This document shows, piece after piece, positions 2,400 to 54,400 of a stretch of DNA of 64,000 nucleotides. The first letter of the stretch is position 1; the number at the start of each line of letters is the position of its first letter. The notes below the pieces were generated by a model. That model saw nothing but the letters and a program-made list of their open reading frames with translations, ran no database searches and was not told where the DNA came from. The position numbers and the translations under genes were made by a program. Source of the stretch: Haplodiscus bocki (lineage: Eukaryota). The DNA lies in assembly GCA_965655095.1 (NCBI GenBank), contig OZ296650.1, positions 38,130,001 through 38,194,000 of the forward strand, given 5' to 3'.

Positions 2400-3290
2400 C
2401 GAACAATAGCTACACATGAGAACATTATTGCTCTTCATTTCAATGATACAAATTCTGTTCGATCCTTATTTTTGGAATTATTTCAAACAATTAATGAACA
2501 AAAAAGGGAAAATATTCTCTTGCGTGATAATTACGAGCAACTTGAAAACGCAACAGACGACATGGTGAAGAGAGTGACCAAATTGTAACGGTATTCTTCT
2601 TACATGTGCTCAACTTTTCATGCAGTTCGTCATAGTGGTGAGTACCCGGAACGTAAAATAGTGAAAATTATCAGGTCAGTACAAAATCCAATTGAACCCT
2701 ACGACATTGTTGCTTGCCCTTACTACCAGGTAACGGCAAAACTAAGCCCATTATCGTGAAATTTTTAAGCAACCATCAACACGATAATAACTGGCAACAA
2801 CAGAATTTATTCTTTGATCCACAAAACAGGGAAAAACTCATATCAAGGAAAGATTGACCGAAACTGATCGAGATCTTCACAAATATTGTAGGAAAAAAGG
2901 ATCTGGTAACAGCTACCCACAAAAATCAAGTACGTGTAAATATATCTAGAAATGATAAATGGTTACCTGTCGATACTCGGAAGGTAGCTGATCTCAATGC
3001 AAACTAACGGTATATTGACCAGCCATATCAATGACTGGGATATGGGACGCCCGCCCAGTATAACAACTAAAGATGAGAAAACACCATATAAAAGAAATCG
3101 TCCAGAAGCTTTCAATTCTCCAACCAATGAAGTACAAAACGAAGTATCGAACCAAAATTACAAGTCGGACAAGCTCTGCTCTCTTATTGAGAAACTGTTC
3201 AGGTTAATGGTTGAAAACAATCTCTGCCGTCTAAAAAATGTAAACGAGGATGAAGGCAAAAATGACATGCAATCCAAGCAGTAAGGGAAC
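2400..3290 (+). pseudogene. LINE ORF1 remnant (coiled coil + RRM-like region); the part upstream of 3123 is present only in copy 1
   Basis: Conceptual translation across stops/frameshifts: ...ENILLRDNYEQLENATDDMVKRVTKL*RYSS...IEPYDIVAC(x)PLPGNGKTKPIIVKFL...HIKERLTETDRDL..., typical of CR1/L2-group ORF1 (LExYS, DIxxCHxL, PIIVKF, IxExLT). Confidence 0.7.
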
Positions 3291-6223
3291 AAAACGAGTG
3301 GCAGAATCATGAGAAAAAAACACGCCAAAGTTAAGCTCAAAATATAAAAATTGTGCTAGGCTTGAAGATACAGTCCCTAGATTCGATCATACAGAATTAA
3401 TATTACCTCTTGAAACTCTCCTGAAAAAACCTGAAGCCATAATGCTAACTGAAACATGGCGTACTGAAAACGATCCATCAACAAAACTAGATATCAACGG
3501 TTATCAGCACATTAAATCAAACACAAGATAAGGTATGAAGCGAAAATCAGGTGGTGTAGCATTCTATTTTAAGGGAGGCATAGAGTACTACACAATAATA
3601 GAATTCGAGACAAACATTGAGTGCTCAATTTGTCGAGCGGTACTGGAAAATAAAGTCACAAAAAAGTTTCTGCGTAATCTAGAGACCTCACTAATTAAAA
3701 CTGAAATCAAATTTTTGTAAAAGTGGAACACTTACGGCATTTTCTGAATTCTTTGAATGAAGCCTGATTTTTGGTGAATTTACAAGAGACACTTTCAAAA
3801 ATGAAAACAACCATATAAGAGTATGATAACTTATTGGGGGCATGGTTTCGAAATGAAAAATTTCTTACCAAGAAGAGTAACCCCAACATCAAAGAAATGT
3901 ATTGATTATATGACTGCAACTGAAGAACACAGAATAGAAACTCTGGAAATAACCAAAAGTGACCATTCTGCCCTGACTGCTGAACTAACGTTCACGTTGA
4001 AAAGGTGCAAACTATTGCACCTGTTAAAAAACGCGATTCCTAAATAATCCTAAAGGAAAAAAGAATTAAACCTTTTAGCTGGAACAACAATTGGAAATTA
4101 TGATGACGTGAATGCTGATTCGTATATGGCTGCACTGTCGAAAACTATTATAAACTGTGTGGACAAATAAGCTCCGCAGAAATGTTTAGCATTTTCTGTG
4201 AAACACATACTGCAAGTTAGATAACCAATAAGATAAAGAATGCCATTGTAAGAGATTGCCTGTTTAAACAATGGATGGGAAACCCTGATGAAGCGAATAG
4301 ATTGTTAAATAAAGTCTCGTAATATTGTGACAACAATGATTCGATAAGAAAAAGAAGCGAATACAATTTTCGTAAGCTCCGCAAAAATCCAACCCCGAAA
4401 CAGATCTACGAAACATTAAAAAACTAACAACTCACAAAATGACGACTTGAAACAATTACCGGACCTTGAAAAACTTGACAATTTTTTTCGTATATGTAGG
4501 CCCAACAGTGGCGAACAAGATCAAAAGTTGGCCCAATGTATGGAAAATTGAAAAACTGCAGTTTTCAATGGTACTGCAACCAACAAGCGAACAAAAAAAT
4601 TGCAAAAATTCAGGTCAAATGAAAAACAAAAAAGTGCTGGCTACATTGGAATCTCAAACGAAATCCTAAAATATTGTTCCCTAATTGTCGAACAAAATCT
4701 TTCAAAAATCATTAACAAATGCATCTTAAGAAATATTCCCTGACTGCTTGAAAGAAACTAAAGTATTGCCGTTACATAGAAGAAGCGATAAAAATCAACC
4801 TGGTAATAACAGACGGATCGGTAAACTGAGTCCATTGAGTAATGTTTTCGAAAAAGTTCTTTTGAAGCGAATGATAAAGTCTTGCGACAAACATGAAATA
4901 ATTTCAAGCATCCAGTCCGATTTAAGACCTAAAGCATCTTGCATCCATAATTGCAACTGTAAGAGTATATCAGAATTGAAATTGACAACAAAATCAACAG
5001 GTCAAGCGTGCTTCATTGATCTTATTAAGGCTTTTGATACGATTAACTATAAGATCTCACCAAAAAAAAGTTAGAAGCTTACGGCTTCAGAGGTAAATTT
5101 ATGAAACTTTTCGAAAATTACCTCCAAAACCGATTACAATATATCAACATTATTGATAAGTCATCGATTGAAAAAGCTATTGAATGTGGTATACCTCAAG
5201 GGTCAGTATTCGGATCTTCTCTATTCCTTTAATACAAATATGATCTTAGTACTACTCGCTCTGAAAGCAAAGTAACGTTGTTGGTAGATGACACTACGGT
5301 TATCAATGCTGGTAAAAGAATCGACTCCGTAGTCGGCAAGGACATTAAAAAATGACCATGTGGTTTGGCAAAAGCAAATTGACTTTCAATGCTGATAAAT
5401 GTGAAGCCATTCACTTCGGTAGAAGCCGACCCGCAACTATAGTAATGAAATATCAATAACTGGATTACAAACCAACTTGCAAAAATGCTGGACTTCACAT
5501 TGATCAAATACCTAGCATTCAGAGATCACAAAGACCACGTTGTAAAAAACAACAACAAGTTTTGCGGTTTATTTATCATGTGCGATATTTGTATCCGAGA
5601 AAGTGACCATTTATGTTTTATAATTCGTTTGCAAAATCGATAATGACGTATGACATCGATAATGACGTATGGTCTACTTATTTACGGAAAATCAGCGAAT
5701 TCAAACTTAGCAAACATCGACAATGTTCAGAGACGAAGTCTTCGTGCTATATTCTTCAAAAATACTATTCAATGCAGCAAATGATGTTCCGAAACAAAAT
5801 TAACACGATGGATGAGTTGTTCATCTAGGAGGTTGTACATAAAGTTTTCGGAGAACTCAGATTAGAGTCGCCATTGATATTGTTGAATTTTGAAGAAAAA
5901 TTAATGTTTTAGTGAGAAACAAGGTGGAACTCGAAGGGCTCTTCCCGCCAATTATTGCGAGAACTATGAAGAAAAAATAGTTTTCGGCAAACTCTTTGAT
6001 GAAGCCTATAATTGGCTGAAAGAGTTAAACCTCACTTCTTCCCTAATAAAAAGGATGACTGTACGACAGTTAAAAAACACCAGAATCTAATCTTATGATT
6101 TAAACATGGTTGACATTGAGGATCTGTTTTGCTTATATTACCAGAAAATTCTATTTCTCGAGACAGTCTGATGTGCTTTTTTAATATTTTGATACTGAGC
6201 AATGTTTGGCTAATTTACTTCCA

Positions 6224-6265
6224 GGGGCGCAGGCATTAAGAGCAATTATGCTCACTTTGCGTCCT
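6224..6265 (+). other. LINE 3'-UTR stem-loop (repeated in all 13 units)
   Basis: GGGGCGCA pairs with TGCGTCCT (two G-U pairs) and encloses a GAGCA-ATTA-TGCTC hairpin, ~65 nt upstream of the CTATTT x2 tail. Confidence 0.6.
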
Positions 6266-6881
6266 AATTGGGTGTGATTTGATAAAATCTCCGAAAAGAT
6301 TGGTTATGTATCTATACCCCACCGGATTAACTATTTCTATTTCTTCTTGCTTCACTGACTAAATGACATTGGCAGAGCATACAAATAGCATGAGTAATGA
6401 TAACTGGGATAAAGTACGATTTTCCCTCTAAAAGCACCATGTTTTTCAGCCATTGCAGCCTGTTTTCCGAAGGCCAGAACTTTTTGACTGTCAAAAAGAA
6501 AAGTTCAGCAGGGCTAATAACAACCTCGGGCAAAATATTTACAATTAAAATAGTTCCAATGGACCAATAAGTGAGGTAAGTGTCCCAATGTTAATGAAAG
6601 CAGAGGCGATTCACGAAAAGGAGTGGCTTTAACGTTTTCGTAACTTTTCCGACGAGACAGTTTTCGCAATAAACAAACCCCTTACCTATGCTTATGCTTC
6701 ACATTGGCAAACATACCACAGCACTTGAAAAAAGTTAGAAGTGCCATCGGAAAAGATTCACTTTACTTCAGAGAAAAACAAAAGGGCGCGAGAAATTGAG
6801 TATACAAGAAAAAGGCGTATCACCAGTAGTGTCAAAAAACTTCGCGTTTTTATCAAATTCAGCAGAAGTATAGATTTGTAT

Positions 6882-9800
6882 ACAAATGAAGTACAAAACG
6901 AAGTATCGAACCAAAATTACAAGTTGGACAAGCTCTGCTCTCTTATTGAGAAACTGTTCACGTTAATGGTTGAGAACAATCTCCTCCGTCCAAAAATACG
7001 TAAATGAGGAGAACGCAAAAATGACTTATGCAATCCAAGCAGTGAAAGAACAAAACGAGTGGCAGAATCATGAGAAAAAAACATGCCAAAATTAAGCTCA
7101 AAATAAATATAGTGTGCTAGGCTTGAAAATACAGTCCTTGAGATTCGATCATACAGAATTATTATTGCCTCTTAAAACTCTCCTGAATAAACCTGAAGCC
7201 ATAATGGTAACTGAATCATGGCGTACTGAAAATGATCCAATAACAAAACTAGATATCAACGGTTATCAGCACATCAAATCAAACACAAGATAAGGTATGA
7301 AGCGAAGATCAGGTGGTGTAGCATTGTATTTTAAGGGAGGCATAGAGTACTACACAATAATAGAAATCGAGACAAACATTGAGTGCTCAATTTGTCGAGC
7401 GGTACTGGAAAATAAAGTCACAAAAAAGTTTCTGCGTAATCTAGAGACCTCAATAATTGAAACTGAATTCAAATTTTTGTAAAAGTGGAAAACTTACGGC
7501 ATTTTTTTGAGATCTTTGAATGAAGTCTGATTTTTGGTGAATTTAACAAAGACACTTTCAAAAATGAAAACAACCATATAAGAGTATGATAACTTATTGG
7601 GGGCATGGTTTCGAAATAAAAAATTTCTTACCACGAAGAGTAACCCCAACATAAAAGAAATGTATTGATTATATGACTGCAACTGAAGAACACAGAATAG
7701 AAACTCAGGAAATAACCAAAAGTGACCATTTTGCCCTGACTGCTGAACTTACGTTCACGTTGAAAAAGTGCAAACCAACTGCACCTGTTAAAAAACGCGA
7801 TTCCTAAATAATCCTAAAGGAAAAAAAGCATTAAACCTTTTAGCTGGAACAACAAATGGAAATTATGATGACGTGAATGCTGATTCGTATATGGCTGCAC
7901 TGTCGAAAACTATTATAAACTATTTGCACAAATAAGCTGCGGAGAAATGTTTAGCACTTTCTGTAAAACACATACTGCAAGTTGGATAACCAATAAAAGA
8001 AAGAATGCCATTGTAAGAGATTGCCTGTTTAAACAATGGATGGGAAACCCTGATGAAGCGAATAGATTGTTATATAAAGTCTCGTAATATTGTGACAACA
8101 ATGATTCGATAAGAAAAAGAAGCGAATACAATTTTCGTAAGCTCCGCAAAAATCCAACCCCGAAACTGATCTACGAAACATTAAAAAACTAACAACTCAC
8201 AAAATGACGACTTGAAACAATTACCGGACCTTGAAAAACTTGACAATTTTTTTCGTATATGTAGGCCCAACATTGGCTCACAAGATCAAAAGTTGGCCCA
8301 ATGTATGGCAAATTGAAAAACTGCAGTTTTCAATGCTACTGCAACCAACACGCGAACAAAAAAATTGCAAAAATTCAGGTCAAATGAAAAACAAAAAAGT
8401 GCTGGCTACATTGGAATCTCAAACGAAATCCTAAAATGCTGTTCCCCAATTGTCGAACGAAATCTTTCAAAAGTCATTAACAAATGCATCTTAGGAAATA
8501 TTCCCTGACTGCTTGAAAGAAACTAAAGTATTGCCGTTACATAGAAGAAGCGATAAAAATCAACCTGGTAATTACAGACGGATCGGTTAACTGAGTCCAT
8601 TGAGTAAAGTTTTCGAAAAAGTTCTTTTGAAGCGAATGATAAAGTCTTGCGACAAACATGAAATAATTTCAAGCATCCAGTCCGATTTCAGACCTAAAAC
8701 ATCTTGCATCCATAATTGCAACTGTAAGAGTATATCAGAATTGAAATTGACAACAAAATCAACAGGTCAAGCGTGCTTCATTGATCTTATTAAGGCATTT
8801 GATTCGATTAACTATAAGATCTCACCATAAAAAATTAGAAGCTTACGGCTTCAGAGGTAAATTTATGAAACTTTTCGAAAAATACCTCCAAAACCGATTA
8901 CAATATATCAACATTATTGATAAGTCATCGATTGAAAAAGCTATTGAATGTGGTATACCTCAAGGGTCAGTATTCGGATCTTTTCTATTACTTTAATACA
9001 TAAATGATCTTAGTACTACTCGCTCTGAAAGCAAAGTAACGTTGTTGGTAGATGACAATACGGTTATCAATGCTGGTAAAAGAATCGACTCCGTAGTCCG
9101 CAAGGACATTAAAAATGACCATGTGGTTTGGCAAGAACAAATTGACTTTCAATGCTGATAAATGTGAAGCCATTCACTTCGGTAGAAGCCGACCCGCAAC
9201 TATAGTAATGAAATATCAATAACTGGATTACAAACCAACTTGCAAATATGCTGGACTTCACATTGATCAAGGACCTAGCATTCAGAGATCACAAAGACCA
9301 CGTTGTAAAAAACAACAACAAGTTTTGCGGTTTATTTATCATGTGCGACATTTGTATCCCAGAAAGTGCCTATTTATGTTTTATAATTCGTTTGCAGAAT
9401 CGATAATGACGTATGAAATCGATAATGACGTATGGTCTACTTATTTACGGAAAATCAGCGAATTCAAACTTAGCAAACATCGATAATGTTCAGAGACGAA
9501 GTCTTCGTGCTATATTCTTAAAAAAAATACTATTCAATGCAGCAAATGATGTTCCGAACAAAATTAACATGATGGATGAGTTGTTCATCTAGGAGGTTGT
9601 ACATAAAGTTTTCGGAGAACTCAGATTAGAGTCGCCATTGATATTGTTGAATTTTGAAGAAAAATTAATGTTTTAGTGAGAAACAAGGTGGAACTCGAAG
9701 GGCTCTTCCCGCCAATTATTGCGAGAACTATGAAGAAAAAATAGTTTTCGGCAAACTCTTTGATGAAGCCTATAATTGGCTGAAAGAGTTAAACCTCACT

Positions 9801-10106
9801 TCTTCCCTAATAAAAAGGATGACTGTACGACAGTTAAAAAACACCAGAATCTAATCTTATGATTTAAACATGGTTGACATTGAGGATCTGTTTTGCTTAT
9901 ATTACCAGAAAATTCTATTTCTCGAGACAGTCTGATGTGCTTTTTTAGTATTTTGATACTGAGCAATGTTTGGCTAATTTAATTCCAGGGGCGCAGGCAT
10001 TAAGAGCAATTATGCTCACTTTGCGTCCTAATTGGGTGTGATTTGATAAAATCTCCGAAAAGATTGGTTATGTATCTATACCCCACCGGATTAACTATTT
10101 CTATTT
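6882..10106 (+). mobile_element. Array unit 2: 5'-truncated dead LINE (APE+RT)
   Basis: Near-identical to 3123-6342; followed by the shared 3' flank. Confidence 0.88.
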
Positions 10107-10646
10107 CTTGTTGCTTCACTGACTAGATGACATTGGCAGAGCATACAAATAGCATGAGTAATGATAACTGGGATAAAGTACGATTTTCCCTCTAAAAGTA
10201 CCATGTTTTTCAGCCATTGCAGCCTGTTTTCCGAAGGCCAGAACTTTTTGACTGTCAAAAAGAAACGTTCAGCAGGGCTAATAACAACCTCGGGCAAAAT
10301 ATTTACAATTAAAATAGTTCCAATGGACCAATAAGTGAGGTAAGTGTCCCAATGTCAATGAAAGCAGAGGCGATTCACGAAAAGGAGTGGTTTTAACGTT
10401 TTCGTAACTTTTCCGACGAGACAGTTTTCGCAATAAACACACCCCTTACCAATGCTTGTGCTTCACATTGGCAAACATACCACAGCACTTGAAAAAAGTT
10501 AGAAGTGCCAACGGAAAAGATTCACTTTACTTCAGAGAAGAACAAAAGGGCGAGAAAAATTGAGTATACCAGAGAAAGGCGTATCACCAGTAGTGTCAAA
10601 AAACTTCGCGTTTTTATCAAAATCAACAGGAAGTATAGATTTGTAT

Positions 10647-13600
10647 ACAAATGAAGTACAAAACGAAGTATCGTACCAAAATTACAAGTTGGACAAGCTC
10701 TGCTCTCTTATTGAGAAACTGTTCACGTTAATGGTTGAGAACAATCTCCGCCGTCCAAAAATACGTAAATGAGGAGAACGCAAAGATGACTTATGCAATC
10801 CAAGCAGTGAAAGAACAAAACGAGTGGCAGAATCATGAGAAAAAACATGCCAAAGTTAAGCTCAAAATAAATGTAGTGCGCTAGGCTTGAATATGCAGTC
10901 CTTGAGATTCGATCATACAGAATTATTATTGCCTCTTAAAATTCTCCTGAATAAACCTGAAGCCATAATGGTAACTGAATCATGGCGTACTGAAAATGAT
11001 CCAATAACAAAACTAGATATCAACGGTTATCAGCACATCAAATCAAACACAAGATAAGGTATGAAGCGAAGATCAGGTGGTGTAGCATTCTATTTTAAGG
11101 GAGGCATAAAGTACTACACAATAATAGAATTCGAGACAAACATTGAGTGCTCAATTTGTCGAGCGGTACTGGAAAATAAAGTCACAAAAAAGTTTCTGGA
11201 TAATCTAGAGACCTCACTAATTGAAACTGAAATCAAATTTTTGTAAAAGTGGAACACTTACGGCATTTTTTGAATTCGTTGAATGAAGCCTGATTTTTGG
11301 TGAATTTACAAGAGACACTTTCAAAAATGAAAAAAACCATATAAGAGTATGATAACTTATTGGGGGCATGGTTTCGAAATGAAAAATTTCTTACCAAGAA
11401 GAGTAACCAACATCAAAGAAATGTATTGATTCTATGACTGCAACTGAAGAACACAGAATAGAAACTCTGGAAATAACCAAAACTGACCATTTTGCCCTGA
11501 CTGCTGAACTAACGTTCACGTTGAAAAAGTGCAAACCAAGTGCACCTGTTAAAAAACGCGATTCCTAAATAATCCTAAAGGAAAAAAGAATTAAGCCTTT
11601 TAGCTGGAACAACAAATGGAAATTGACGTGAATGCTGATTCGTATATGGCTGCACTGTCGAAAACTATTATAAATTGTGTGGACAAATAAGCTCCGGAGA
11701 AATATTATCACTTTCTGTAAAACACATACTGCAAGTTGGATAACCAATAAAATAAAGAATGCCATTGTAAGAGATTGCCTGTTTAAACAATGGATGGGAA
11801 ACCCTGATGAAGCGAATAGATTGTTATATAAAGTCTCGTAATATTGTGACAACAATGATTCGATAAAAGAAGCGAATACAATTTTCGTAAGCTCCGCAAA
11901 AATCCAACCCCGAAACAGATCTACGAAACATTAAAAAACTAACAACTCACAAAATGACGACTTGAAACAATTACAGGACCTTGAAAAACTTGACAATTTT
12001 TTTCGTATATGTAGGCCCAACATTGGCGAACAAGATCAAAAGTTGGCCCAATGTATGGAAAATTGAAAAACTGCAGTTTTCAATGGTACTGTAACCAACA
12101 AGCCAACAAAAAAATTGCAAAATTTCAGGTCAAATGAAAAACAAAAAAGTGCTGGCTACATTGGAATCTCAAACGAAATCCTAAAATGTTGTTCCCCAAT
12201 TGTCGAACAAAATCTTTCAAAAGTCATTAACAAATGCATCTTAGGAAATATTCCCTGACTGCTTGAAAGAAACTAAAGTACTGCCGTTACATAGAAGAAG
12301 CGATAAAAATCAACCTGGTAATTACAGACGGATCGGTTAACTGAGTCCATTGAGTAAAGTTTTCGAAAAAGTTTTATTGAAGCGAATGATAAAGTCTTGC
12401 GACAAACATGAAATAATTTCAAGCATCCAGTCCGATTTCAGACCTAAAACATCTTGCATCCATAATTGCAACTGTAAGAGTATATCAGAATTGAAATTGA
12501 CAACAAAATCAACAGGTCAAGCATGCTTCATTGATCTTATTAAGGCATTTGATACGATTAACTATAAGATCTCACCAAAGAAAATTAGAAGCTTACGTCT
12601 TCAGAGGTAAATGAAACTTTTCGAAAATTACTTCCAAAACCGATTACAATATATCAACATTATTGATAAGTCATCGAGTGAAAAAGCTATTGAATGTGGT
12701 CTACCTCAAGGGTCAGTATTCGGATCTTTTCTATTCCTTTAATACATAAATGATCTTAGTACTACTCGCTCTGAAAGCAAAGTAACGTTGTTGGTAGATG
12801 ACACTACGGTTATCAATGCTGGTAAAAGAATCGACTCCGTAGTCGGCAAGGACATTAAAAAATGACCATGTGGTTTGGCAAAAGCAAATTGACTTTCAAT
12901 GCTGATAAATGTGAAGCCATTCACTTCGGTAGAAGCCGACCCGAAACTATAGTAATGAAATATCAATAACTGGATTACAAATCAACTTGCAAATATGCTG
13001 AACTTCACATTGATGAAATACCTAGCATTCAGAGACCACATAGACCACGTTGTAAAAAAACAACAAATTTTGCGGTTTATTTATCATGTGCGACATTTGT
13101 ATCCGAGAAAGTGCCTATTTATGTTTTATATTTCGTTTGCAGAATCGATAATGACGTATGAAATCGATAATGACGTATGGTCTACTTATTTACGGAAAAT
13201 CAGCGAATTCAAACTTAGCAAACATCGATAATGTTCAGAGACGAAGTCTTCGTGCTATACTCTTCAAAAAAAATACTATTCAATGCAGCAAATGATGTTC
13301 CGAAACAAAATTAACACGATGGATGAGTTGTTCATCTAGGAGGTTGTACATAAAGTTTTCGGAGAACTCAGATTAGAGTCGCCATTGATATTGTTGAATT
13401 TTGAAGAAAAATTAATGTTTTAGTGAGAAACAAGGTGGAACTCGAAGGGCTCTTCCCGCCAATTATTGCGAGAACTATGAAGAAAAAATAGTTTTCGGCA
13501 AACTCTTTGATGAAGCCTATAATTGGCTGAAAGAGTTAAACCTCACTTCTTCCCTAATAAAAAGGATGACTGTACGACAGTTAAAAAACACCAGAATCTA

Positions 13601-13853
13601 ATCTTATGATTTAAACATGGTTGACATTGAGGATCTGTTTTGCTTATATTACCAGAAAATTCTATTTCTCGAGACAGTCTGATGTGCTTTTACAATATTT
13701 TGATACTGAGCAATGTTTGGCTAATTTACTTCCAGGGGCGCAGGCATTAAGAGCAATTATGCTCACTTTGCGTCCTAATTGGGTGTGATTTGATAAAATC
13801 TCCGAAAAGATTGGTTATGTATCTATACCCCACCGGATTAACTATTTCTATTT
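10647..13853 (+). mobile_element. Array unit 3: 5'-truncated dead LINE
   Basis: Same motifs; short variant with several small deletions shared with unit 7. Confidence 0.88.
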
Positions 13854-14393
13854 CTTGTTGCTTCACTGACTAGATGACATTGGCAGAGCATACAAATAGC
13901 ATGAGTAATGATAACTGCGATAAAGTACGATTTTCCCTCTAAAAGTACCATGTTTTTCAGCCATTGCAGCCTGTTTTCCGAAGGCCAGAACTTTTTGACT
14001 GTCAAAAAGAAACGTTCAGCAGGGCTAATAACAACCTCGGGCAAAATATTTACAATTAAAATAGTTCCAATGGACCAATAAGTGAGGTAAGTGTCCCAAT
14101 GTTAATGAAAGCAGAGGCGATTCACGAAAAGGAGTGGTTTTAACGTTTTAGTAACTTTTCCGACGAGACAGTTTTCGCAATAAACACACCCCTTACCAAT
14201 GCTTGTGCTTCACATTGGCAAACATACCACAGCACTTGAAAAAAGTTAGAAGTGCCAACGGAAAAGATTCACTTTACTTCAGAGAAAAACAAAAGGGCGC
14301 GAAAAATTGAGTATACCAGAGAAAGGCGTATCACCAGTAGTGTCAAAAAACTTCGCGTTTTTATCAAATTCAACAGGAAGTATGGATTTGAAT

Positions 14394-40714: not shown

Positions 40715-43700
40715 ACCAATGAAGTACAAAACGAAGTATCGAACCAAAATTACAACTTGGACAAGCTCTGCTCTCTTATTGAGAAACTGTTCAAGTTAAT
40801 GGTTGAGAACAATCTCCGCCGTCCAAAAATACGTAAATGAGGAGAACGCAAAAATGACTTATGCAATCCAAGCAGTGAAAGAACAAAACGAGTGGCAGAA
40901 TCATGAGAAAAAACATGCCAAAGTTGAGCTCAAAATAAATGTAGTGCGCTAGGCTTGAATATACAGTCCTTGAGATTCGATCATACAGAATTAATATTGC
41001 CTCTTGAAACTCTCCTGAATAAACCTGAAGCCATAATGCTATCTGAAACATGCCGTACTGAAAATGATCCAATAACAAAACTAGATATCAACGGTTATCA
41101 GCACATTAAATCAAACACAAGATAAGGTATGAAGCGAAAATCAGGTGGTGTAGCACTCTATTTTAAGGGAGGCATACTACACAATAATAGAATTCGAGAC
41201 AAACATTGAGTGCTCAATTTGTCGAGCGGTACTGGAAAATAAAGTCACAAAAAAGTTTCTGCGTAATCTAGAGACGTCAATAATTGAAACTGAATTCGAA
41301 GTTTTGTAAAAGTGGAAAACTTACGGCATTTTTTGAATTCTTTGAATGAAGTCCGATTTTTGGTGAATTTACCAGAGACACTTTCAAAAATGAAAAAAAC
41401 CATATAAGAGTATGATAACTTATTGGGGGCATGGTTTCGAAATGAAAAATTTCTTACCAAGAAGAGTAACCCCAACACCAAAGAAATGTATTGATTATAT
41501 GACTGCAACTGAAGAACACAGAATAGAAACTCTGGAAATAACCAAAACTGACCATTTTGCCCTGACTGCTGAACTAACGTTCACGTTGAAAAAGTGCAAA
41601 CTAACTGCACCTGTTAAAAAACGCGATTCCTAAATAATCCTAAAGGAAAAAAGAATTAAACCTTTTAGCTGGAACAACAATTGGAAATTATGATGACGTG
41701 AATGCTGATTCGTATATGGCTGCACTGTCGAAAACTATTAAAAAACTGTGTGGACAAATGAGCTCCGGAGAAATGTTTAGCACTTTCTGTAAAACACATA
41801 CTGCAAGTTGGATAACCAATAAAATAAAGAATGCCATTGTAAGAGATTGCCTGTTTAAACAATGGATGGGAAACCCTGATCAAGCGAAAAGATTGTTATA
41901 TAAAGTCTCGTAATATTGTGACAACAATGATTCGATAAGAAAAAGGAGCGAAAAGAATTTTCGTAAGCTCCGCAAAAATCCAACCCCGAAACAGATCTAC
42001 GAATTATTAAAAACTGACAACTCACAAAATGACGACTTGAAACAATTACCGGACCTTGAAAAACTTGAAGACTTTTTTAATATCTGTAGGCCCAACATTG
42101 GCAAACAAGATCAAAAGTTGGCCCAATGTATGACAAGTTGAAAAACTGCAGTTTTCAATGGTACTGCAACCAACAAACGAACAAAAAAATTGCAAAATTT
42201 CAGGTCAAATGAAAAACAAAAAAGTGTGGCTACATTGGAATCTCAAACGAAATCCTAAAATGTTGCTGCCAATTGTCGAACAAAATCTTTCAAAAGTCAT
42301 TAACAAATGCATCTTAAGAAATATTCCCTGACGGCTTGAAAGAAACTAAAGTATTGCCGTTACATAGAAGAAGCGATAAAAATCAACCTGGTAATTACAG
42401 ACGGATCGGTAAACTGAGTCCATTGAGTAATGTTTTCGAAAAAGTTCTTTTGAAGCGAATGATAAAGTCTTGCGACAAACATGAAATAATTTCAAGCATC
42501 CAGTCCGATTTCAGACCTAAAACATCTTGCATCCATAATTGCAACTGTAAGAGTATATCAGAATTGAAATTGACAACAAAATCAACAGGTCAAGCGTGCT
42601 TCATTGATCTTATTAAGGCATTTGATTCGATTAACTATAAGATCTCACCATAAAAAATTAGAAGCTTACGGCTTCAGAGGTAAATTTATGAAACTTTTCG
42701 AAAACTACCTCCAAAACCGATTACAATATATCAACATTATTGATAAGTCATCGAGTGAAAAAGCTATTGAATGTGGTCTACCTCAAGGGTCAGTATTCGG
42801 ATCTTTTCTATTCCTTTAATACATAAATGATCTTAGTACTACTCGCTCTGAAAGCAAAGTAACGTTGTTGGTAGATGACACTACGGTTATCAATGCTGGT
42901 AAAAGAATCGACTCCGTAGTCCGCAAGGACATTAAAAATGACCATGTGGTTTGGCAAGAACAAATTGACTTTCAATGCTGATAAATGTGAAGCCAATCAC
43001 TTCGGTAGAAGCCGACCCGAAACTATAGTAATGAAATATCAATAACTGGATTACAAATCAACTTGCAAATATGCTGGAATTCACATTGATGAAATACCTA
43101 GCATTCAGAGACCACATAGACCACGTTGTAGAAAAAACAACAACTTTTGCGGTTTATTTATCATGTGCGACATTTGTATCCAAGAAAGTGCCTATTTATG
43201 TTTTATAAGTCGTTTGCAGAATCGATAATGACGTTTGAAATTGATAATGACGTATGGTCTACTCATTTACGGAAAATCAGCGAATTCAAACTTAGCAAAC
43301 ATCGACAAGGTTCAGAGACGAAGTCTTCGTGCTATATTCTTCAAAAAAAATACTATTCAATGCAGCAAATGATGATCCGAAACAAAATTAACACGATGGA
43401 TGAGTTGTTCATCTAGGAGGTTGTACATAAAGTTTTCGGAGAACTCAGATTAGAGTCGCCATTGATATTGTTGAATTTTGAAGAAAAATTAATGTTTTAG
43501 TGAGAAACAAGGTGGAACTCTAAGGGCTCTTCCCGCCAATTATTGCGAGAACTATGAAGAAAAAATAGTTTTCGGCAAACTCTTTGATGAAGCCTATAAT
43601 TGGCTGAAAGAGTTAAACCTCACTTCTTCCCTAATAAAAAGGATGACTGTGCGACAGTTAAAAAACACCAGAATCTAATCTTATGATTTAAACATGGTTG

Positions 43701-43930
43701 ACATTGAGGATCTGTTTTGCTTATATTACCAGCAAATTCTATTTCTCGACACAGTCTGATGTGCTTTTTTAATATTTTGATACTGAGCAATGTTTGGCTA
43801 ATTTACTTCCAGGGGCGCAGGCATTAAGAGCAATTATGCTCACTTTGCGTCCTAATTGGGTGTGATTTGATAAAATCTCCGAAAAGATTGGTTATGTATC
43901 TATACCCCACCGGATTAACTATTTCTATTT
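40715..43930 (+). mobile_element. Array unit 11: 5'-truncated dead LINE
   Basis: GGCATACTAC 5-bp deletion shared with unit 13 (+7,516). Confidence 0.88.
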
Positions 43931-44470
43931 CTTGTTGCTTCACTGACTAGATGACATTGGCAGAGCATACAAATAGCATGAGTAATGATAACTGCGATAA
44001 AGTACGATTTTCCCTCTAAAAGTACAATGTTTTTCAGCCATTGCAGCCTGTTTTCCGAAGGCCAGAACTTTTTGACTGTCAAAAAGAAACGTTCAGCAGG
44101 GCTAATAACAACCTCGGGCAAAATATTTACAATTAAAATAGTTCCAATGGACCAATAAGTGAGGTAAGTGTCCCAATGTTAATGAAAGCAGAGGCGATTC
44201 ACGAAAAGGAGTGGTTTTAACGTTTTCGTAACTTTTCCGACGAGACAGTTTTCGCAATAAACACACCCCTTACCAATGCTTGTGCTTCACATTGGCAAAC
44301 ATACCAGAGCACTTGAAAAAAGTTAGAAGTGCCAACGGAAAAGATTCACTTTACTTCAGAGAAAAACAAAAGGGCGCGAAAAATTGAGTATACCAGAGAA
44401 AGGCGTATCACCAGTAGTGTCAAAAAACTTCGCGTTTTTATCAAATTCAACAGGAAGTATGGATTTGAAT

Positions 44471-47400
44471 ACCAATGAAGTACAAAACGAAGTATCGAAC
44501 CAAAATTACAAGTTGGACAAGCTCTGCTCTCTTATTGAGAAACTGTTCACGTTAATGGTTGAGAACAATCTCCGCCGTCCAAAAATACGTAAATGAGGAG
44601 AACGCAAAAATGACTTATGCAATCCAAGCAGTGAAAGAACAAAACGAGTGCCAGAATCATGAGAAAAAACATGCCAAAGTTAAGCTCAAAATAAAGGTAG
44701 TGCGCTGGGCTTGAATATACAGTCCTTGAGATTCGATCACACAGAATTAATAATGCCTCTTGAAACTCTCCTGAATAAACCTGAAGCCATAATGCTATCT
44801 GAAACAAGCCGTACTGAAAATGATCCAATAACAAAACTAGATATCAACGGTTATCAGCACATTAAATCAAACACAAGATAAGGTATGAAGCGAAAATCAG
44901 GTGGTGTAGCACTCTATTTTAAGGGAGGCATAGAGTACTACACAATAATAGAATTCGAGACAAACATTGAGTGCTCAATTTGTCGAGCGGTACTGGAAAA
45001 TAAAGTCACAAAAAAGTTTCTGCGTAATCTAGAGACCTCAATAATTGAAACTGAATTCACATTTTTGTAAAAAAGGAAAACTTACGGCATTTTTTTAAAT
45101 CTTTGAATGAAGCCTGATTTTTGGTGAATTTACAAGAGACACTTTCAAAAATGAAAAAAAACCATATAAGAGTATGATAACTTATTGGGGGCATGGTTTC
45201 GAAATGAAAAATTTCTTACCAAGAAGAGTAACCCCAACATCAAAGAAATGTATTGATTATATGACTGCAACTGAAGAACACAGAATAGAAACTCTGGAAA
45301 TAACCAAAACTGACCATTTTGCCCTGACTGCTGAACAAACGTTCACGTTGAAAAAGTGCAAACTAACTGCACCTGTTAAAAAACGCGATTCCTAAATAAT
45401 CCTAAAGGAAAAAAAGCATTAAACCTTTTAGCTGGAACAACAAATGGAAATTATGATGACGTGAATGCTGATTCGTATATGGCTGCACTGTCGAAAACTA
45501 TTATAAACTATTTGCACAAATAAGCTGCGGAGAAATGTTTAGCACTTTCTGTAAAACACATACTGCAAGTTGGATAACCAATAAAATAAAGAATGCCATT
45601 GTAAGAGATTGCCTGTTTAAACAATGGATGGGAAACCCTGATGAAGCGAATAGAATGTTATATAAAGTCTCGTAATATTGTGACAACAATGATTCGATAA
45701 GAAAAAGAAGCGAATACAAGTTTCGTAAGCTCCGCAAAAATCCAACCCCGAAACAGATCTACGAAACATTAAAAAACTAACAACTCACAAAATGACGACT
45801 TGAAACAATTACCGGACCTTGAAAAACTTGACAATTTTTTTCGTATATGTAGGCCCAACATTGGCGAACAAGATCAAAAGTTGGCCCAATGTATGGAAAA
45901 TTTAAAAACTGCAGTTTTCAATGGTACTGTAACCAACAAGCCAACAAAAAAATTGCAAAATTTCAGGTCAAATGAAAAACAAAAAAGTGCTGGCTACATT
46001 GGAATCTCAAACGAAATCCTAAAATGTTGTTCCCCAATTGTCGAACAAAATCTTTCAAAAGTCATTAACAAATGCATCTTAGGAAATATTCCCTGACTGC
46101 TTGAAAGAAACTAAAGTATTGCCGTTACATAGAAGAAGCGATAAAAATCAACCTGGTAATTACAGACGGATCGGTTAACTGAGTCCATTGAGTAAAGTTT
46201 TCGAAAAAGTTCTTTTGAAGCGAATGATAAAGTCTTGCGACAAACATGAAATAATTTCAAGCATCCAGTCCGATTTCAGACCTAAAACATCTTGCATCCA
46301 TAATTGCAACTGTAAGAGTATATCAGAATTGAAATTGACAACAAAATCAACAGGTCAAGCGTGCTTCATTGATCTTATTAAGGCATTTGATACGATTAAC
46401 TATAAGATCTCACCAAAAAAATTGGAAGCTTACGGCTTCAGAGTTAAATTTATGAAACTTTTCGAAAACTACCTCCAAAACCGATTACAATATATCAACA
46501 TTATTGATAAGTCATCGAGTGGAAAAGCTATTGAATGTGGTCTACCTCAAGGGTCAGTATTCGAATCTTTTCTATTCCTTTAATACATAAATGATCTTAG
46601 TACTACTCGCTCTGGAAGCAAAGTAACGTTGTTGGTAGATGACACTACGGTTATCAATGCTGGTAAAAGAATCGACTCCGTAGTCCGCAAGGACATTAAA
46701 AATGACCATGTGGTTTGGCAAGAACAAATTGACTTTCAATGCTGATGAATGTGAAGCCAATCACTTGGGTAGAAGCCGACCCGAAACTATAGTAATGAAA
46801 TATCAATAACTGGATTACAAATCAACTTGCAAATATGCTGGAATTCACATTGATGAAATACCTAGCATTCAGAGACCACATAGACCACGTTGTAAAAAAA
46901 ACAACAACTTTTGCGGTTTATTTATCATGTGCGATATTTGTATCCGAGAAAGTGACCATTTATGTTTTATATTTCGTTTGCAAAATCGATAATGACGTAT
47001 GACATCGATAATGACGTATGGTCTACTTATTTACGGAAAATCAGCGAATTCAAACTTAGCAAACATCGACAATGTTCAGAGACGAAGTCTTCGTGCTATA
47101 TTCTTCAAAAATACTATTCAATGCAGCAAATGATGTTCCGAAACAAAATTAACACGATGGATGAGTTGTTCATCTAGGAGGTTGTACATAAAGTTTTCGG
47201 AGAACTCAGATTAGAGTCGCCATTGATATTGTTGAATTTTGAAGAAAAATTAATGTTTTAGTGAGAAACAAGGTGGAACTCTAAGGGCTCTTCCCGCCAA
47301 TTATTGCGAGAACTATGAAGAAAAAATAGTTTTCGGCAAACTCTTTGATGAAGCCTATAATTGGCTGAAAGAGTTAAACCTCACTTCTTCCCTAATAAAA

Positions 47401-47691
47401 AGGATGACTGTGCGACAGTTAAAAAACACCAGAATCTAATCTTATGATTTAAACATGGTTGACATTGAGGATCTGTTTTGCTTATATTACCAGAAAATTC
47501 TATTTCTCGAGACAGTCTGATGTGCTTTTTTAGTATTTTGATACTGAGCAATGTTTGGCTAATTTAATTCCAGGGGCGCAGGCAATAAGCGCAATTATGC
47601 TCACTTTGCGTCCTAATTGGGTGTGATTTGATAAAATCTCCGAAAAGATTGGTTATGTATCTATACCCCACCGGATTAACTATTTCTACTT
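44471..47691 (+). mobile_element. Array unit 12: 5'-truncated dead LINE
   Basis: Near-identical to unit 10. Confidence 0.88.
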
Positions 47692-48230
47692 CTTGTTGCT
47701 TCACTGACTAGATGACATTGGCAGAGCATACAAATAGCATGAGTAATATAACTGGGATAAAGTACGATTTTCCCTCTAAAAGTACCATGTTTTTCAGCCA
47801 TTGCAGCCTGTTTTCCGAAGGCCAGAACTTTTTGACTGTCAAAAAGAAACGTTCAGCAGGGCTAATAACAACCTCGGGCAAAATATTTACAATTAAAATA
47901 GTTCCAATGGACCAATAAGTGAGGTAAGTGTCCCAATGTTAATGAAAGCAGAGGCGATTCACGAAAAGGAGTGGTTTTAACGTTTTCGTAACTTTTCCGA
48001 CGAGACAGTTTTCGCAATAAACACACCCCTTACCAATGCTTGTGCTTCACATTGGCAAACATACCACAGCACTTGAAAAAAGTTAGAAGTGCCAACGGAA
48101 AAGATTCACTTTACTTCAGAGAAGAACAAAAGGGCGAGAAAAATTGAGTATACCAGAGAAAGGCGTATCACCAGTAGTGTCAAAAAACTTCGCGTTTTTA
48201 TCAAATTCAACAGGAAGTATGGATTTGAAT

Positions 48231-51200
48231 ACCAATGAAGTACAAAACGAAGTATCGAACCAAAATTACAACTTGGACAAGCTCTGCTCTCTTATTGAGA
48301 AACTGTTCAAGTTAATGGTTGAGAACAATCTCCGCCGTCCAAAAATACGTAAATGAGGAGAACGCAAAAATGACTTATGCAATCCAAGCAGTGAAAGAAC
48401 AAAACGAGTGGCAGAATCATGAGAAAAAACATGCCAAAGTTGAGCTCAAAATAAATGTAGTGCGCTAGGCTTGAATATACAGTCCTTGAGATTCGATCAT
48501 ACACAATTAATATTGCCTCTTGAAACTCTCCTGAATAAACCTGAAGCCATAATGCTATCTGAAACATGCCGTACTGAAAATGATCCAATAACAAAACTAG
48601 ATATCAACGGTTATCAGCACATTAAATCAAACACAAGATAAGGTATGAAGCGAAAATCAGGTGGTGTAGCACTCTATTTTAAGGGAGGCATACTACACAA
48701 TAATAGAATTCGAGACAAACATTGAGTGCTCAATTTGTCGAGCGGTACTGGAAAATAAAGTCACAAAAAAGTTTCTGCGTAATCTAGAGACCTCAATAAT
48801 TGAAACTGAATTCGAAGTTTTGTAAAAGTGGAAAACTTACGGCATTTTTTGAATTCTTTGAATGAAGTCCGATTTTTGGTGAATTTACCAGAGACACTTT
48901 CAAAAATGAAAAAAACCATATAAGAGTATGATAACTTATTGGGGGCATGGTTTCGAAATGAAAAATTTCTTACCAAGAAGAGTAACCCCAACACCAAAGA
49001 AATGTATTGATTATATGACTGCAACTGAAGAACACAGAATAGAAACTCTGGAAATAACCAAAACTGACCATTTTGCCCTGACTGCTGAACTAACGTTCAC
49101 GTTGAAAAAGTGCAAACTAACTGCACCTGTTAAAAAACGCGATTCCTAAATAATCCTAAAGGAAAAAAGAATTAAACCTTTTAGCTGGAACAACAATTGG
49201 AAATTATGATGACGTGAATGCTGATTCGTATATGGCTGCACTGTCGAAAACTATTAAAAAACTGTGTGGACAAATGAGCTCCGGAGAAATGTTTAGCACT
49301 TTCTGTAAAACACATACTGCAAGTTGGATAACCAATAAAATAAAGAATGCCATTGTAAGAGATTGCCTGTTTAAACAATGGATGGGAAACCCTGATCAAG
49401 CGAAAAGATTGTTATATAAAGTCTCGTAATATTGTGACAACAATGATTCGATAAGAAAAAGGAGCGAAAAGAATTTTCGTAAGCTCCGCAAAAATCCAAC
49501 CCCGAAACAGATCTACGAATTATTAAAAACTGACAACTCACAAAATGACGACTTGAAACAATTACCGGACCTTGAAAAACTTGAAGACTTTTTTAATATC
49601 TGTAGGCCCAACATTGGCAAACAAGATCAAAAGTTGGCCCAATGTATGACAAGTTGAAAAACTGCAGTTTTCAATGGTACTGCAACCAACAAACGAACAA
49701 AAAAATTGCAAAATTTCAGGTCAAATGAAAAACAAAAAAGTGTGGCTACATTGGAATCTCAAACGAAATCCTAAAATGTTGTTGCCAATTGTCGAACAAA
49801 ATCTTTCAAAAGTCATTAACAAATGCATCTTAAGAAATATTCCCTGACGGCTTGAAAGAAACTAAAGTATTGCCGTTACATAGAAGAAGCGATAAAAATC
49901 AACCTGGTAATTACAGACGGATCGGTAAACTGAGTCCATTGAGTAATGTTTTCGAAAAAGTTCTTTTGAAGCGAATGATAAAGTCTTGCGACAAACATGA
50001 AATAATTTCAAGCATCCAGTCCGATTTCAGACCTAAAACATCTTGCATCCATAATTGCAACTGTAAGAGTATATCAGAATTGAAATTGACAACAAAATCA
50101 ACAGGTCAAGCGTGCTTCATTGATCTTATTAAGGCATTTGATACGATTAACTATAAGATCTCACCAAAAAAATTAGAAGCTTACGGCTTCAGAGGTAAAT
50201 TTATGAAAATTTTCGAAAAATACCTCCAAAACCGATTACAATATATCAACATTATTGATAAGTCATCGAGTGAAAAAGCTATTGAATGTGGTATACCTCA
50301 AGGGTCAGTATTCGGATCTTTTCTATTACTTTAATACATAAATGATCTTAGTACTACTCGCTCTGAAAGCAAAGTAACGTTGTTGGTAGATGACACTACG
50401 GTTATCAATGCTGGTAAAAGAATCGACTCCGTAGTCCGCAAGGACATTAAAAAATGACCATGTGGTTTGGCAAGAACAAATTGACTTTCAATGCTGATAA
50501 AAGTGAAGCCATTCACTTCGGTAGAAGCCGACCAGAAACTATAGTAATGAAATATCAATAACTGGATTACAAATCAACTTGCAAATATGCTGGACTTCAC
50601 ATTGATCAAATACCTAGCATTCAGAGACCACATAGACCACGTTGTAAAAAAAACAACAAGTTTTGCGGTTTATTTATCATGTGCGACATTTGTATCCGAG
50701 AAAGTGCCTATTTATGTTTTATAATTCGTTTGCAAAATCGATAATGACGTATGAAATCGATAATGACATATGGTCTACTTCTTTACGGCAAATCAGCGAA
50801 TTCAAACTTAGCAAACATCGACAATGTTCAGAGACGAAGTCTTCTTGCTATATTCTTCAAAAAAAATACTATTCAATGCAGCAAAAGATGTTCCGAAACA
50901 AAATTAACACGATGGATGAGTTGTTCATCTAGGAGGTTGTACATAAAGTTTTCGGAGAACTCAGATTAGAGTCGCCATTGATATTGTTGAATTTTGAAGA
51001 AAAATTAATGTTTTAGAGAGAAACAAGGTGGAACTCGAAGGGCTCTTCCCGCCAATTATTGCGAGAACTATGAAGAATAAAAAGTCTTTGGCAAACTCTT
51101 TGATGAAGCCTATAATTGGCTGAAAAAGTTAAACCTCACTTCTTCCCTAATGAGAACGATGACTGTACGAGAGTTTAGAAACACCTGAATCTAATCTTAT

Positions 51201-51446
51201 GAATTATACACGGTTGACATTGAGGGTCCGTTTTGCTTATATTACCAGAAAATTCTATTTCTCGAGACAGTCTGATGTGCTTTTTTAGTATTTTGATACT
51301 GAGCAATGTTTGGCTAATTTAATTCCAGGGGCGCAGGCATTGAGAGCAATTATGCTCACTTTGCGTCCTAATTGGGTGTGATTTGATAAAATCTCCGAAA
51401 AGATTGGTTATGTATCTATACCCCACCGGATTAACTATTTCTATTT
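48231..51446 (+). mobile_element. Array unit 13 (terminal): 5'-truncated dead LINE
   Basis: Carries the longest open RT fragment (49852-50334, 160 aa); 3' part has private variants and continues into unique sequence after 51963. Confidence 0.88.
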
Positions 51447-54400
51447 CTTGTTGCTTCACTGACTAGATGACATTGGCAGAGCATACAAATAGCATGAGTA
51501 ATGATAACTGGGATAAAGTACGATTTTCCCTCTAAAAGTACCATGTATTTCAGCGATTTCAGCCTGTTTTCCGAAGGCCAGAACATTTTGACTGTCAAAA
51601 AGAAACGTTCAGTAGGGCTAATAACAACCTCGGGCAAAATATTTACAATTAGAATAGTTCCAATGGACCAATAAGTGAGGTAAGTGTCCCAATGTTAATG
51701 AAAGCAGAGGCGATTCACGAAAAGGAGTGGTTTTAACGTTTTCGTAACTTTTCCGACCAGACAGTTTTCGCAATAAACACACCCCTTACCAATGTTTGTG
51801 CTTCACATTGGCAAACATACCACAGCACTTGAAAAGTTAGAAGTGCCAAGCGGAAAAGATTTACTTTACTTCAGAGAAAAACAAAGAGGCGCGAAAAAAT
51901 GAGTGTACCAGAGAAGGGCGTATCACCAAAATTGTCAAAAAACTTCGCGTTTATCAAATTCAAAAGGGAAAGTTGTTTTTATTGACCGAAGTTTTTTTCG
52001 CATTTCGAAAGATTCTTTCTCCACGAAAACGTTTCAGAAGTTGAACTTGGTCGAGCGTTCTCGAGCACTCTGGTTGGAGTTTCAGAGCTCTTCTGAAAAC
52101 TCCGGAAAAAATACAAAACTTTTCCAGAAATAAATGATGAAGAAAATACATAAATTAAAGAAAACAGGTGAGTTCGCGGAAAAGACTGGCTGGATGCTTG
52201 GATTATCTTACCTGCATTTATTTACCTTAAAGGCCGATGATGCAAAAATTGAAAACAATAGGCTTTTTCTCGAAATTCAAACTCTTTTCGTCTAAAAACC
52301 ACATAATGGATTTTATCATCAACAACTCAGTCGAAATTTTCTCTCCCTTGCAGAATGCTATTGGGCATTGATACACTTCTTTGGCTCCTTGGATCCGGAA
52401 AATGAGAGCAGAAATGCAGAAAAGTGCGATTAGTATAGACCTTTCTCAATTATCAAACAGACCTTTCGCCGAAAACTATCAGGTTGATTCCCTCCATCAA
52501 GTTGTCACTTAGCAGCTATCGACATGTAAAGACTTATTCGATAATTCTGTTTTTCTTCCTTGTTACTGAAAATTGACAGGCCGCGTAGTGCTTTCATAAT
52601 TATTATCGATTTCCAAACTTTTCTCGCCAGAATCACCAGCTTCATTTCTTCCGTCAAAATGTAACACAGCCGCTTTTTAGTTGTATAGGCTCATTTGATA
52701 AAACTGCTATTTTTTCTCTTTGCTCCAGGAAAGGAATGAGCCGAAGATGCCAAAAAATGCCAATAGTAATTTTGATCGACCTTCCAATCAAATTGAGTCT
52801 CCCATCAAAATCTCAAGCACCAACTACTTAATTGTACCGAGTTTTAGGAATTATATGACGAGTTTGGCTCCAGGCATCAAAGTCCTGAAAGGTGGAAAGT
52901 AAAACATTACTTCAGTATGTTTTTCCTTTCATGATCAATCATATACGTCTCACAAATCATCCTGCACATTTTTTATTCAAGATGTCGTCGACAGTTTTCC
53001 ACTTGTAGAGAAGGTTTCGATCAGAGAATCATCGAGTTTGCTACACAGAACCTCCGGCAACTGACTGGGAGTAAAAGCCACAATGTTCGAGTTGGTAGTG
53101 ATATCCCACGATATTCGAATTTCAAACCCAATATCCGCGTAAACTACCGAAGAGATTCCTTCCACAAAATTCTCAATCGTGAACACTCTAGTTGCGCAGA
53201 GAGAATCCAAAAAGATGTCAGAAAAAAACCTTCAATTCGTTTCAATTTCTCACGGTAATCGAAGAGACGTCTCAGAAACCACCGGATGGACGTTATGCAT
53301 CAAGAAGCCAATCGACAGCTATCAATTTTAAAAAATTATTCAGTGATGCGTATAACCCAGTTTGCTCCTTGGATATAAAACATGATTGGCCAAAACTGCA
53401 AAAAAAAGTTCCATTATAAGTGATTTGTGATTGAGTTTCAGCATTAAAATTCTCCGAAACTACGGACTGGATTGGTGACATTGACCACTCATGAGAAGAA
53501 TTTCCTGGCATTCGAAGCTCGAAAACTCCAAAAAACGAAAAAAATATGTTTTCATATTTCTCGACAATCAAACTCATAATTCTTTAAAATTATCGGCTTG
53601 ATCTCTTCTATTAAGTTGGCAATAGACAGCATTTGGTTTACGAAATGTCATTCAAAATTTGATTTTTGAGTTTTTCTGCTTGCGGTGTATTCATGACAGG
53701 CCGATAATTCCGAAAAGTGCCGCAAATTTGACTTTTCTATAGACTCATGAATATGCTTCTCCGAAACGATCGGCACCATTTCTTCCACGAAGGTGTCAGT
53801 CGACCATTTTCTCTTCATTGAAGCGCAATTTTTTGGTGCATCAACCCGGTCAAGATAACTAGACAGGCCGGAGTTTACCAAAAATTCTTTAGTATTTAAT
53901 TCTCTTAATTTTCAACCACATTTTCCTCTAAACTACGATGTTAGTTTTTCCATCAGAAGTCTCCTTTTACTAATAAATTTTGCAAGAGATATTCGGATGT
54001 TAAAGTAATCCATTTTGTTCCCCGGCATCGGAAAACTGCTGGGCGGATGTTGCCACACGTGTGATTAGCAATGATCGTTCTCTATTTTCGATGCCATGTA
54101 TCCCCGAGACTATCGGCCCGATTTCTTCGATCAAGATCCTTTCGCTAAATTTTAGTTGCAGAAGGGTAATATTTGTGTATACTTTTGATTTGGTTCCTTG
54201 TATCTAGAAAATAATTGACTAAAAAAGCCAAAAAACGTATTTAGTAAATAGTCCTCTGAATATTCCAAGTTTATTTTCCAAATTTATCGTATGGACCACT
54301 TCAATCAATGTCTCCGTCAACGGTCTTCAGATAATATTCTTTTCAATTCTTAGAAATGCATGGAAGACCTGGCTGGAAGAAAATGCAGGTATTGATGATT

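Follow-up and report, generated by a model that had tools for sequence, protein, structure and literature searches.

A broken LINE and its 3' flank as a 13-unit tandem array in a predicted FAD synthase intron of Haplodiscus bocki

Megasatellites derived from transposable elements (TEs), intronic ones included, are already known: the human examples described in the relevant parts of Warburton et al. (2008, PMC2588610) come from interspersed TEs and include 3.5-kb MaLR/MSTA arrays and a mer20-derived array. Here we describe a clean textbook example, a 48.8-kb array of 13 head-to-tail units, each made of most of a broken long interspersed nuclear element (LINE) plus 520 bp of its 3' flank, in a 64-kb window (the whole stretch of DNA analysed; contig OZ296650.1, positions 38,130,001 to 38,194,000, forward strand) of the 1.5-Gb assembly GCA_965655095.1 of Haplodiscus bocki. 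Our reading, to which we give a probability of roughly 0.88, is that these 13 copies, lying in a predicted intron of the FAD synthase gene, go back to an element that was already dead when a single non-homologous event duplicated its DNA, that they multiplied by unequal exchange and gene conversion, and that the array is probably functionless. As far as that account of the human arrays goes, it resembles them in its kilobase units of old TE sequence amplified after insertion, its higher-order blocks and its signs of unequal crossing-over; some of the human arrays are likewise wholly intronic, and the mer20 array retains a full-length parent at its start (PMC2588610). What sets it apart is that its 13 units, joined by a single junction type, occupy one locus at which the unique DNA on either side has been assembled and for which family copies serve as outgroup; the succession of events and their relative ages are therefore measurable.

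Retroelements are also embedded in the tandem monomers of the chicken HinfI repeat (CR1 ORF2 and 3' UTR), a cetacean L1-derived satellite, Phodopus PROsat and potato Sobo, as outlined in PMC9659126; unlike the monomers outlined there, the unit here consists of most of a LINE and its own insertion-site flank, it occurs in few copies, and the array is still joined to the 5' end of the parent. For Drosophila, the pertinent sections of McGurk and Barbash (2018, PMC5932611) describe tandem TE dimers formed by double insertion and a two-stage model, in which a small tandem arises first and is then expanded by unequal exchange. The present array follows the same scheme, but whereas the seed described there is a transposition that keeps its target site, here we find a flank-to-internal junction with filler, no target-site duplication (TSD) and a dead element. 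Satellites have further been proposed to come from decayed TEs, the 'transposon graveyards' of PMC12628747, and the likeness lies in decayed TE DNA made tandem by DNA-level events, although the portion of that work concerned deals with composite monomers in heterochromatin, whereas here a housekeeping gene harbours a single element in what is predicted to be an intron. A literature search made without the organism's name found no publication on the locus, which does not imply that it is unpublished. What is new beyond a preliminary description of this DNA, made from the sequence, is the intron setting, a 17-nt filler, the dating from the array's edge, the block history and three more arrays.

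Array structure and its single type of junction

Self-BLAST of the window gave 12 off-diagonals at multiples of ~3.76 kb with 95.0-98.1% identity, and the periods of the 13 units range from 3745 to 3768 bp, confirming the ~3.76-kb macrosatellite that had been placed at 3123..51963 as a single array. With head-to-tail units of more than 2 kb in one long array, TE sequence older than the amplification, and turnover by unequal exchange and conversion visible in the blocks, tracts and four-gamete failures described below, it belongs to the TE-derived macrosatellites, or megasatellites. The main features, all on the plus strand, are as follows.

2322..3122, +: 5' stretch of the LINE that lies outside the repeat unit (5' untranslated region [UTR] and most of open reading frame [ORF] 1, broken), the left parent
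~3123-51964 (right end to ~51967), +: tandem array, 13 units, 48.8 kb, by self-BLAST
3123..6344, +: LINE part of unit 1, with the last ~56 codons of ORF1, ORF2 (endonuclease and reverse transcriptase [RT], many stops and frameshifts), the 3' UTR and an (ATTTCT)n tail
6345..6864, +: 3' flank of unit 1, 520 bp, locus-specific in the genome search
6865..6881, +: junction filler, 17 nt, with variant copies at 12/12 junctions
6882..48230, +: units 2-12, by self-BLAST and unit comparison
48231..51964, +: unit 13, which lacks the filler and continues into unique DNA
51965..52700, +: unique right flank, the presumed parental continuation of the 520-bp flank
Unit starts, +: 3123, 6882, 10647, 14394, 18162, 21919, 25682, 29427, 33195, 36954, 40715, 44471, 48231

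Two units may differ by no substitution at all, as units 4 and 8 do, or by as many as 173, the count for units 1 and 13; few stretches of the array diverge more than the 3' half of unit 13. In full the LINE measures ~4.0 kb; in the family majority ORF1 spans ~2406-3292 and the ORF2 ATG lies at ~3309, so the unit, starting at 3123, begins within ORF1, with the LINE 5' end present only to the left of copy 1 as had been proposed. All 18 of the dispersed family copies that were aligned run uninterrupted across position 3123.

Both the flank and the junction proved locus-specific, as predicted. A genome query with 6350-6900 (15/15 candidates scored) recovered the 13 units at full length and two weak matches of 51 and 83 bp, while among the best 40 of 50 candidates for 6200-6881 there were again 13 full-length units, together with 27 matches confined to the first 160 bp, that is, to the LINE tail. 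The measured flank agrees with the ~520 bp by which the unit had been said to extend beyond that tail. A junction pattern found 11 genome matches, all within the array, the 12th junction deviating from the pattern. Dispersed copies of the LINE together with its flank, bounded by TSDs, were looked for and not seen. A Helitron-driven array was considered and rejected, given that flank and junction are not dispersed and that the unit start is internal to the LINE.

The 12 internal junctions are alike save for a few substitutions, and the joint, leading from 6865 back to 3123 with the 17-nt filler, is present in contigs of 4/4 runs (two samples from one study). There is one junction type, and it is not flush. 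For the filler, the best match to eight neighbouring 40-nt stretches was no better than random (p = 0.30), and 94 kb of sequence held no copy of it outside the junctions. Neither poly(A), LINE tail nor TSD was found at the unit ends or after unit 13, which bears out the earlier statement that none separates the units, and a tandem formed by double insertion or 3' transduction was rejected because the tail or poly(A) and the TSD expected of it are missing at the junction. At the right boundary the flanking DNA is unique in the genome search (three weak 68-71% matches lie away from it), and contigs bridge unit 13 to unique DNA, over 51806-56500 or 51806-54653, without differences. Of the continuation described to the right of copy 13, its uniqueness is borne out; that it is the true parental continuation is what we infer.

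The LINE family and the state of the element before amplification

The order of domains in ORF2, an AP-type endonuclease followed by RT, together with a common 3' end, a simple-repeat tail and some 5' truncation among the dispersed copies, identifies the element as an endonuclease/RT non-long-terminal-repeat (non-LTR) retrotransposon. RVT_1 was matched by three ORF fragments of the window in Pfam, two of them above the curated cut-off, with no Pfam match for four of nine window ORFs or for one ORF1 candidate of a relative; in tblastn, unit 1 is collinear, across several frames, with an intact 980-aa Exo_endo_phos and RVT_1 protein elsewhere in the genome. From its tail and motifs we take the element to resemble the CR1/L2 group (Crack, Daphne, Kiri-like), a candidate label that comes from motif likeness and not from an RT phylogeny. 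In a related LINE family, whose RT is ~41% identical, many copies (e.g. L088:3126-6065) still have 900-1000 aa of open frame; this family is for that reason likely young, unlike that of the array.

As predicted, the LINE body itself is dispersed in genome DNA searches. The 20 copies retrieved show 73-84% aligned identity over up to 4.0 kb, and 19 of them are without any ORF of at least 200 aa. In 18 of the 20 the alignment stops at 6341-6351, on the (ATTTCT)n tail, and with the flank included in the query none extends into the 520 bp. Among the best 40 of 448 candidates for the same-family 5' query 2000-3122, 18 rows were other 5' copies of the LINE, 12 of them beginning at 2321-2335, and 22 belonged to a separate dispersed short repeat at ~2105-2247, where contig depth is very high. 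A candidate TSD of the parent LINE is a 7-nt match at both ends with unit 1 (6/7 in the other 12 units); the best matches of the dispersed copies are 5-8 nt long and lie at scattered places. Just after the 7-nt match, at the 5' end of the LINE, stands an imperfect direct repeat of ~18 bp (window 2306-2345).

We built a family majority from 18 copies, dropping two short 3' fragments (L062, L063) from the 20, and the dispersed copies lie 11-18% from it. The majority has no single open ORF2 and retains four 1-bp frame ambiguities; the four ambiguous zones were kept out of the lesion counts. One such zone holds a 19-bp internal tandem duplication in ORF2 (~5634-5670), which occurs in 13/13 units and lies outside the 25 lesions counted below.

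Against this majority we recorded 80 lesions, of which 25 (8 stops and 17 frameshifting indels) occur in 13/13 units, in keeping with the disabling lesions that had been reported for all copies, and 19 of the 25 are absent from all 18 dispersed copies. Of 3150 comparable columns, every unit carries the derived state in 276, and 269 vary among units. The fixed derived substitutions fall 77/69/83 over the codon positions and include 12 nonsense changes, as neutral decay predicts. Shared lesions by themselves are insufficient because homogenisation can spread late mutations, and we therefore used the left edge of the array, which is informative because exchange reaches it least. The opening 400 bp of unit 1 offer 398 sites, at which 28 derived changes are shared, 16 belong to unit 1 only and 12 to the other units only; beyond the edge, the others-only sites fall to 1-6 per bin. 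Two lesions within the edge, a frameshift in ORF1 (~3213) and a stop in ORF2 (~3332), are common to the units, and the unduplicated stretch 2322..3122 is 9.8% from the family majority. These counts give a divergence of about 7% before the first duplication and 3-4% per lineage after it; with about two-thirds of the edge divergence older than that duplication, the element was already dead by then. The dead founder of the preliminary description is supported by this edge test, the shared lesions being no proof of it on their own.

Probable growth by block duplication

Two block duplicates account for much of the array's present length.

8445-23035 vs ~23480-38070, +: very young 4-unit block duplicate, offset ~15,035
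35212-42626 vs 42728-50142, +: young 2-unit block duplicate, offset ~7,516

The copies of the 4-unit block differ by four private substitutions and two short conversion-like tracts that match other units, and those of the 2-unit block by 15 differences, mostly private. At ~0.03% and 0.2%, respectively, compared with ~11% for the element, these divergences make 6 of the 13 units very recent, and seven units are left when both duplicates are subtracted. In eight columns, at unit positions 627 and 941-1052, odd-numbered units consistently carry one state and even-numbered units another, a relic of earlier 2-unit shifts, and the four-gamete test is failed by 3512 of 17020 informative site pairs. 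These hierarchical copy relations fit stepwise unequal exchange with conversion, a mechanism read from the pattern of the sequences. A strong dimeric higher-order repeat was rejected: offsets of 2 and 4 units have the lowest distances (21.5 and 18.1 per kb vs 26-48), mostly as an effect of the two young blocks, and strict alternation is confined to the eight columns.

The history that we propose begins with what can be observed, namely that the predicted intron holds, in antisense orientation, a 4.0-kb LINE of the endonuclease/RT type whose family is dispersed and decayed. This element would have decayed neutrally to ~7% from the family majority before a break-repair or replication event tied the end of the flank, via the 17-nt filler, to a point 0.8 kb inside the LINE, presumably leaving two copies without terminal redundancy. 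The block structure suggests that out-of-register exchange then raised the number to ~7 copies and that 2-unit and 4-unit shifts, with short conversion tracts, brought it very recently to 13. Both outer edges would have escaped homogenisation and so preserve the age of the first duplication.

That the whole array instead arose in one step, from an extrachromosomal circle of LINE and flank that was copied by rolling circle and reinserted as a concatemer, we consider unlikely. Such a mechanism appears in Fig. 1B of PMC5932611, and a whole number of copies with one junction type fits it; later recombination could, moreover, have erased the traces of an initial burst that made up to ~7 copies. The distances of 0-173 substitutions, however, fall in nested blocks and are not star-like, and at least 6 of the 13 units are explained by the two recent block duplications. 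If only the first duplication is considered, the product of a tandem duplication does not differ from that of a circle that reinserted where it came from, so that of the two origins offered in the preliminary description, tandem duplication or reinserted circle, seeding at the DNA level holds, the two routes are indistinguishable, and a one-step rolling-circle origin of all 13 units is disfavoured.

Among the best 150 of 5042 RT matches in the genome, we found three further regularly spaced tandem arrays with broken LINE sequence; the resulting four arrays among ~129 RT loci are a sample ranked by similarity and give no genome-wide rate.

C1:159748508-159755219 (L076-L078): 5 x 1341-bp array, broken RT fragment of another LINE family
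C2:137293399-137309118 (L079-L083): ~6.2 x 2532-bp array, broken LINE 3' half, units 94-97% identical, 528-bp terminal redundancy
C1:139254948-139275973 (L084-L087): ~2.2 x 9666-bp duplicate (99%), broken LINE ORF2, bounded by a 1.7-kb repeat

The 1341-bp array has a few bases of microhomology at its junction, and its units 2/4 and 3/5 differ by three substitutions each, marking a 2-unit block duplicate. A general preference for even-numbered shifts is not supported: a 2-unit shift is seen in this array, but the two most similar units of the C2 array are neighbours.

The predicted FAD synthase intron, copy number and remaining explanations

Around the array, on the minus strand, we predict the following parts of the FAD synthase gene.

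55574..55834, -: predicted coding exon 1, FAD synthase (FLAD1), 87 codons, MoCF_biosynth (E 6.9e-23)
494..55573, -: predicted intron, phase 0, GT-AG, 55,080 bp
1..493, -: predicted exon 2, end of MoCF and middle domain (FLAD1_M, E 2.9e-18), acceptor tttag

The MoCF, middle and PAPS-reductase domains follow one another in order and contiguously across the predicted GT-AG intron: the match between exon 1 and the human FAD synthase 8RON extends up to residue 87, the envelope of exon 2 begins at 89 (it aligns to 8RON residues 114-240), and its reading frame runs on to the left of the window, with the PAPS-reductase exons further left. Each of the two exons has one genome match, indicating a single-copy gene. 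The array, antisense to FAD synthase, makes up 89% of the predicted intron, which would be ~10 kb long with one unit; a predicted intron in a gene that the cell needs has been enlarged five-fold (10 to 55 kb) without new transposition. Another dispersed repeat lies in the intron at window ~660-1480, with many loose ends and raised contig depth, and on the plus strand at ~56300-58200 there are decayed frames that by eye we take to resemble a non-LTR element with a restriction-like endonuclease.

Selection might have kept or expanded the array as a tuner of FAD synthase expression or a chromatin element, an explanation that we regard as less likely still than the one-step circle. In its favour are the position of the array, within what is predicted to be intron 1 of a housekeeping gene present once in the genome, and the antisense orientation, with its count of AATAAA per unit of 1 on the gene strand vs 6 on the LINE strand (unit 5). 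Set against this are the neutral-looking substitution spectrum, the lack of any conserved part within the unit and the three other LINE-containing arrays elsewhere in the genome. Antisense survival of intronic LINEs is, besides, the ordinary expectation.

An array that is largely an artefact of assembly, over-expanded or concatenated from two haplotypes, is very improbable. Units 4 and 8 are identical, the young block of ~15 kb approximates the length of a long read, and no contig spans the whole array, as such an artefact would have it; but the junction is present in both samples, private substitutions, about a dozen of them, are scattered over the 2-unit block, and most units differ by 53-173. 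Depth, too, rejects 7 or 9 copies on both chromosomes. For this rough test we compared k-mer depths of single contigs with simulated counts, setting summed depth tables aside, in the two samples of the one study, of which S2 (pooled) may be the assembly's own source. The S2 depth ratios of 7.1/7.4/9.0 compare with simulated values of 7.9/8.6/10.0 for 13 copies, 6.4/7.3/8.5 for 11, 5.2/5.6/6.7 for 9 and 3.8/4.5/5.3 for 7; they fit 11-13 copies and argue against gross over-assembly. In run X1, one contig fits (8.8-11.3 vs 10.7 expected). Over window 54691-55996 this run has a contig at half depth (23 vs 48), which suggests that sample S1 is heterozygous in the region of FAD synthase exon 1.

Several points weigh against our account of a single duplication of a dead element. 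A depth between 11 and 13 copies may leave room for a shorter second allele, and two of the three X1 contigs fall short (2.6 vs 8.2 and 4.2 vs 9.4), possibly through contigs on minority paths. The edge estimate uses just 56 sites, and since synonymous sites make up a slightly larger share of the shared than of the polymorphic changes (62/229 vs 49/228, p = 0.19), part of the ~7% may be divergence of a master or source gene from the majority. Six of the 25 shared lesions also occur in 1-4 dispersed copies, some of the 25 may be one event counted twice, and the majority comes from only 18 hand-picked copies with 1-bp frame ambiguities left. The genome DNA search scores top candidates only and skips common words. 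Finally, on the evidence of this one locus, the one-event origin and the continuity of the right flank are probable rather than shown.

Weakest of all is a tandem seeded by retrotransposition, either through a read-through transcript with a 3'-transduced flank or through a second insertion at the same target; in its favour, the 5'-truncated start and the short untemplated filler of the array bear a likeness to the 5' junctions of LINEs. We set it aside almost entirely: although tail-to-internal non-LTR tandems are common in Drosophila according to the sections of PMC5932611 concerned, the junction here sits 520 bp past the tail, neither the unit ends nor the end of unit 13 carries poly(A), tail or TSD, unit 13 equals the internal flank up to the filler and so requires the insertion to have hit the very end of its own transcript, and the left edge shows an element already broken, in a family of which 19/20 copies lack an ORF of at least 200 aa.

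A bolder extension, which we think doubtful, is that dead LINEs routinely become kilobase satellites in this genome and that the array is caught in mid-growth, even-numbered shifts having raised the count from 7 to 13 within the most recent ~1% of the element's history, with the constant transcription of the housekeeping intron driving exchange and with a length that varies between individuals and tunes FAD synthase output. If so, the locus would be a natural, datable test of models of satellite birth.

In conclusion, few satellites still preserve the traces of how they began, and here the parent, both flanks, the founding junction and an outgroup are all present. The birth of a satellite can be read with both flanks much as first proposed, the junction, the parental 5' end and a unique right flank being in place and the parental status of that right flank following by inference. 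The stages of the two-stage model are readable and roughly datable, from insertion through decay and a first duplication at about two-thirds of the divergence to recent growth by blocks, and the array supports known models of satellite birth rather than altering them.

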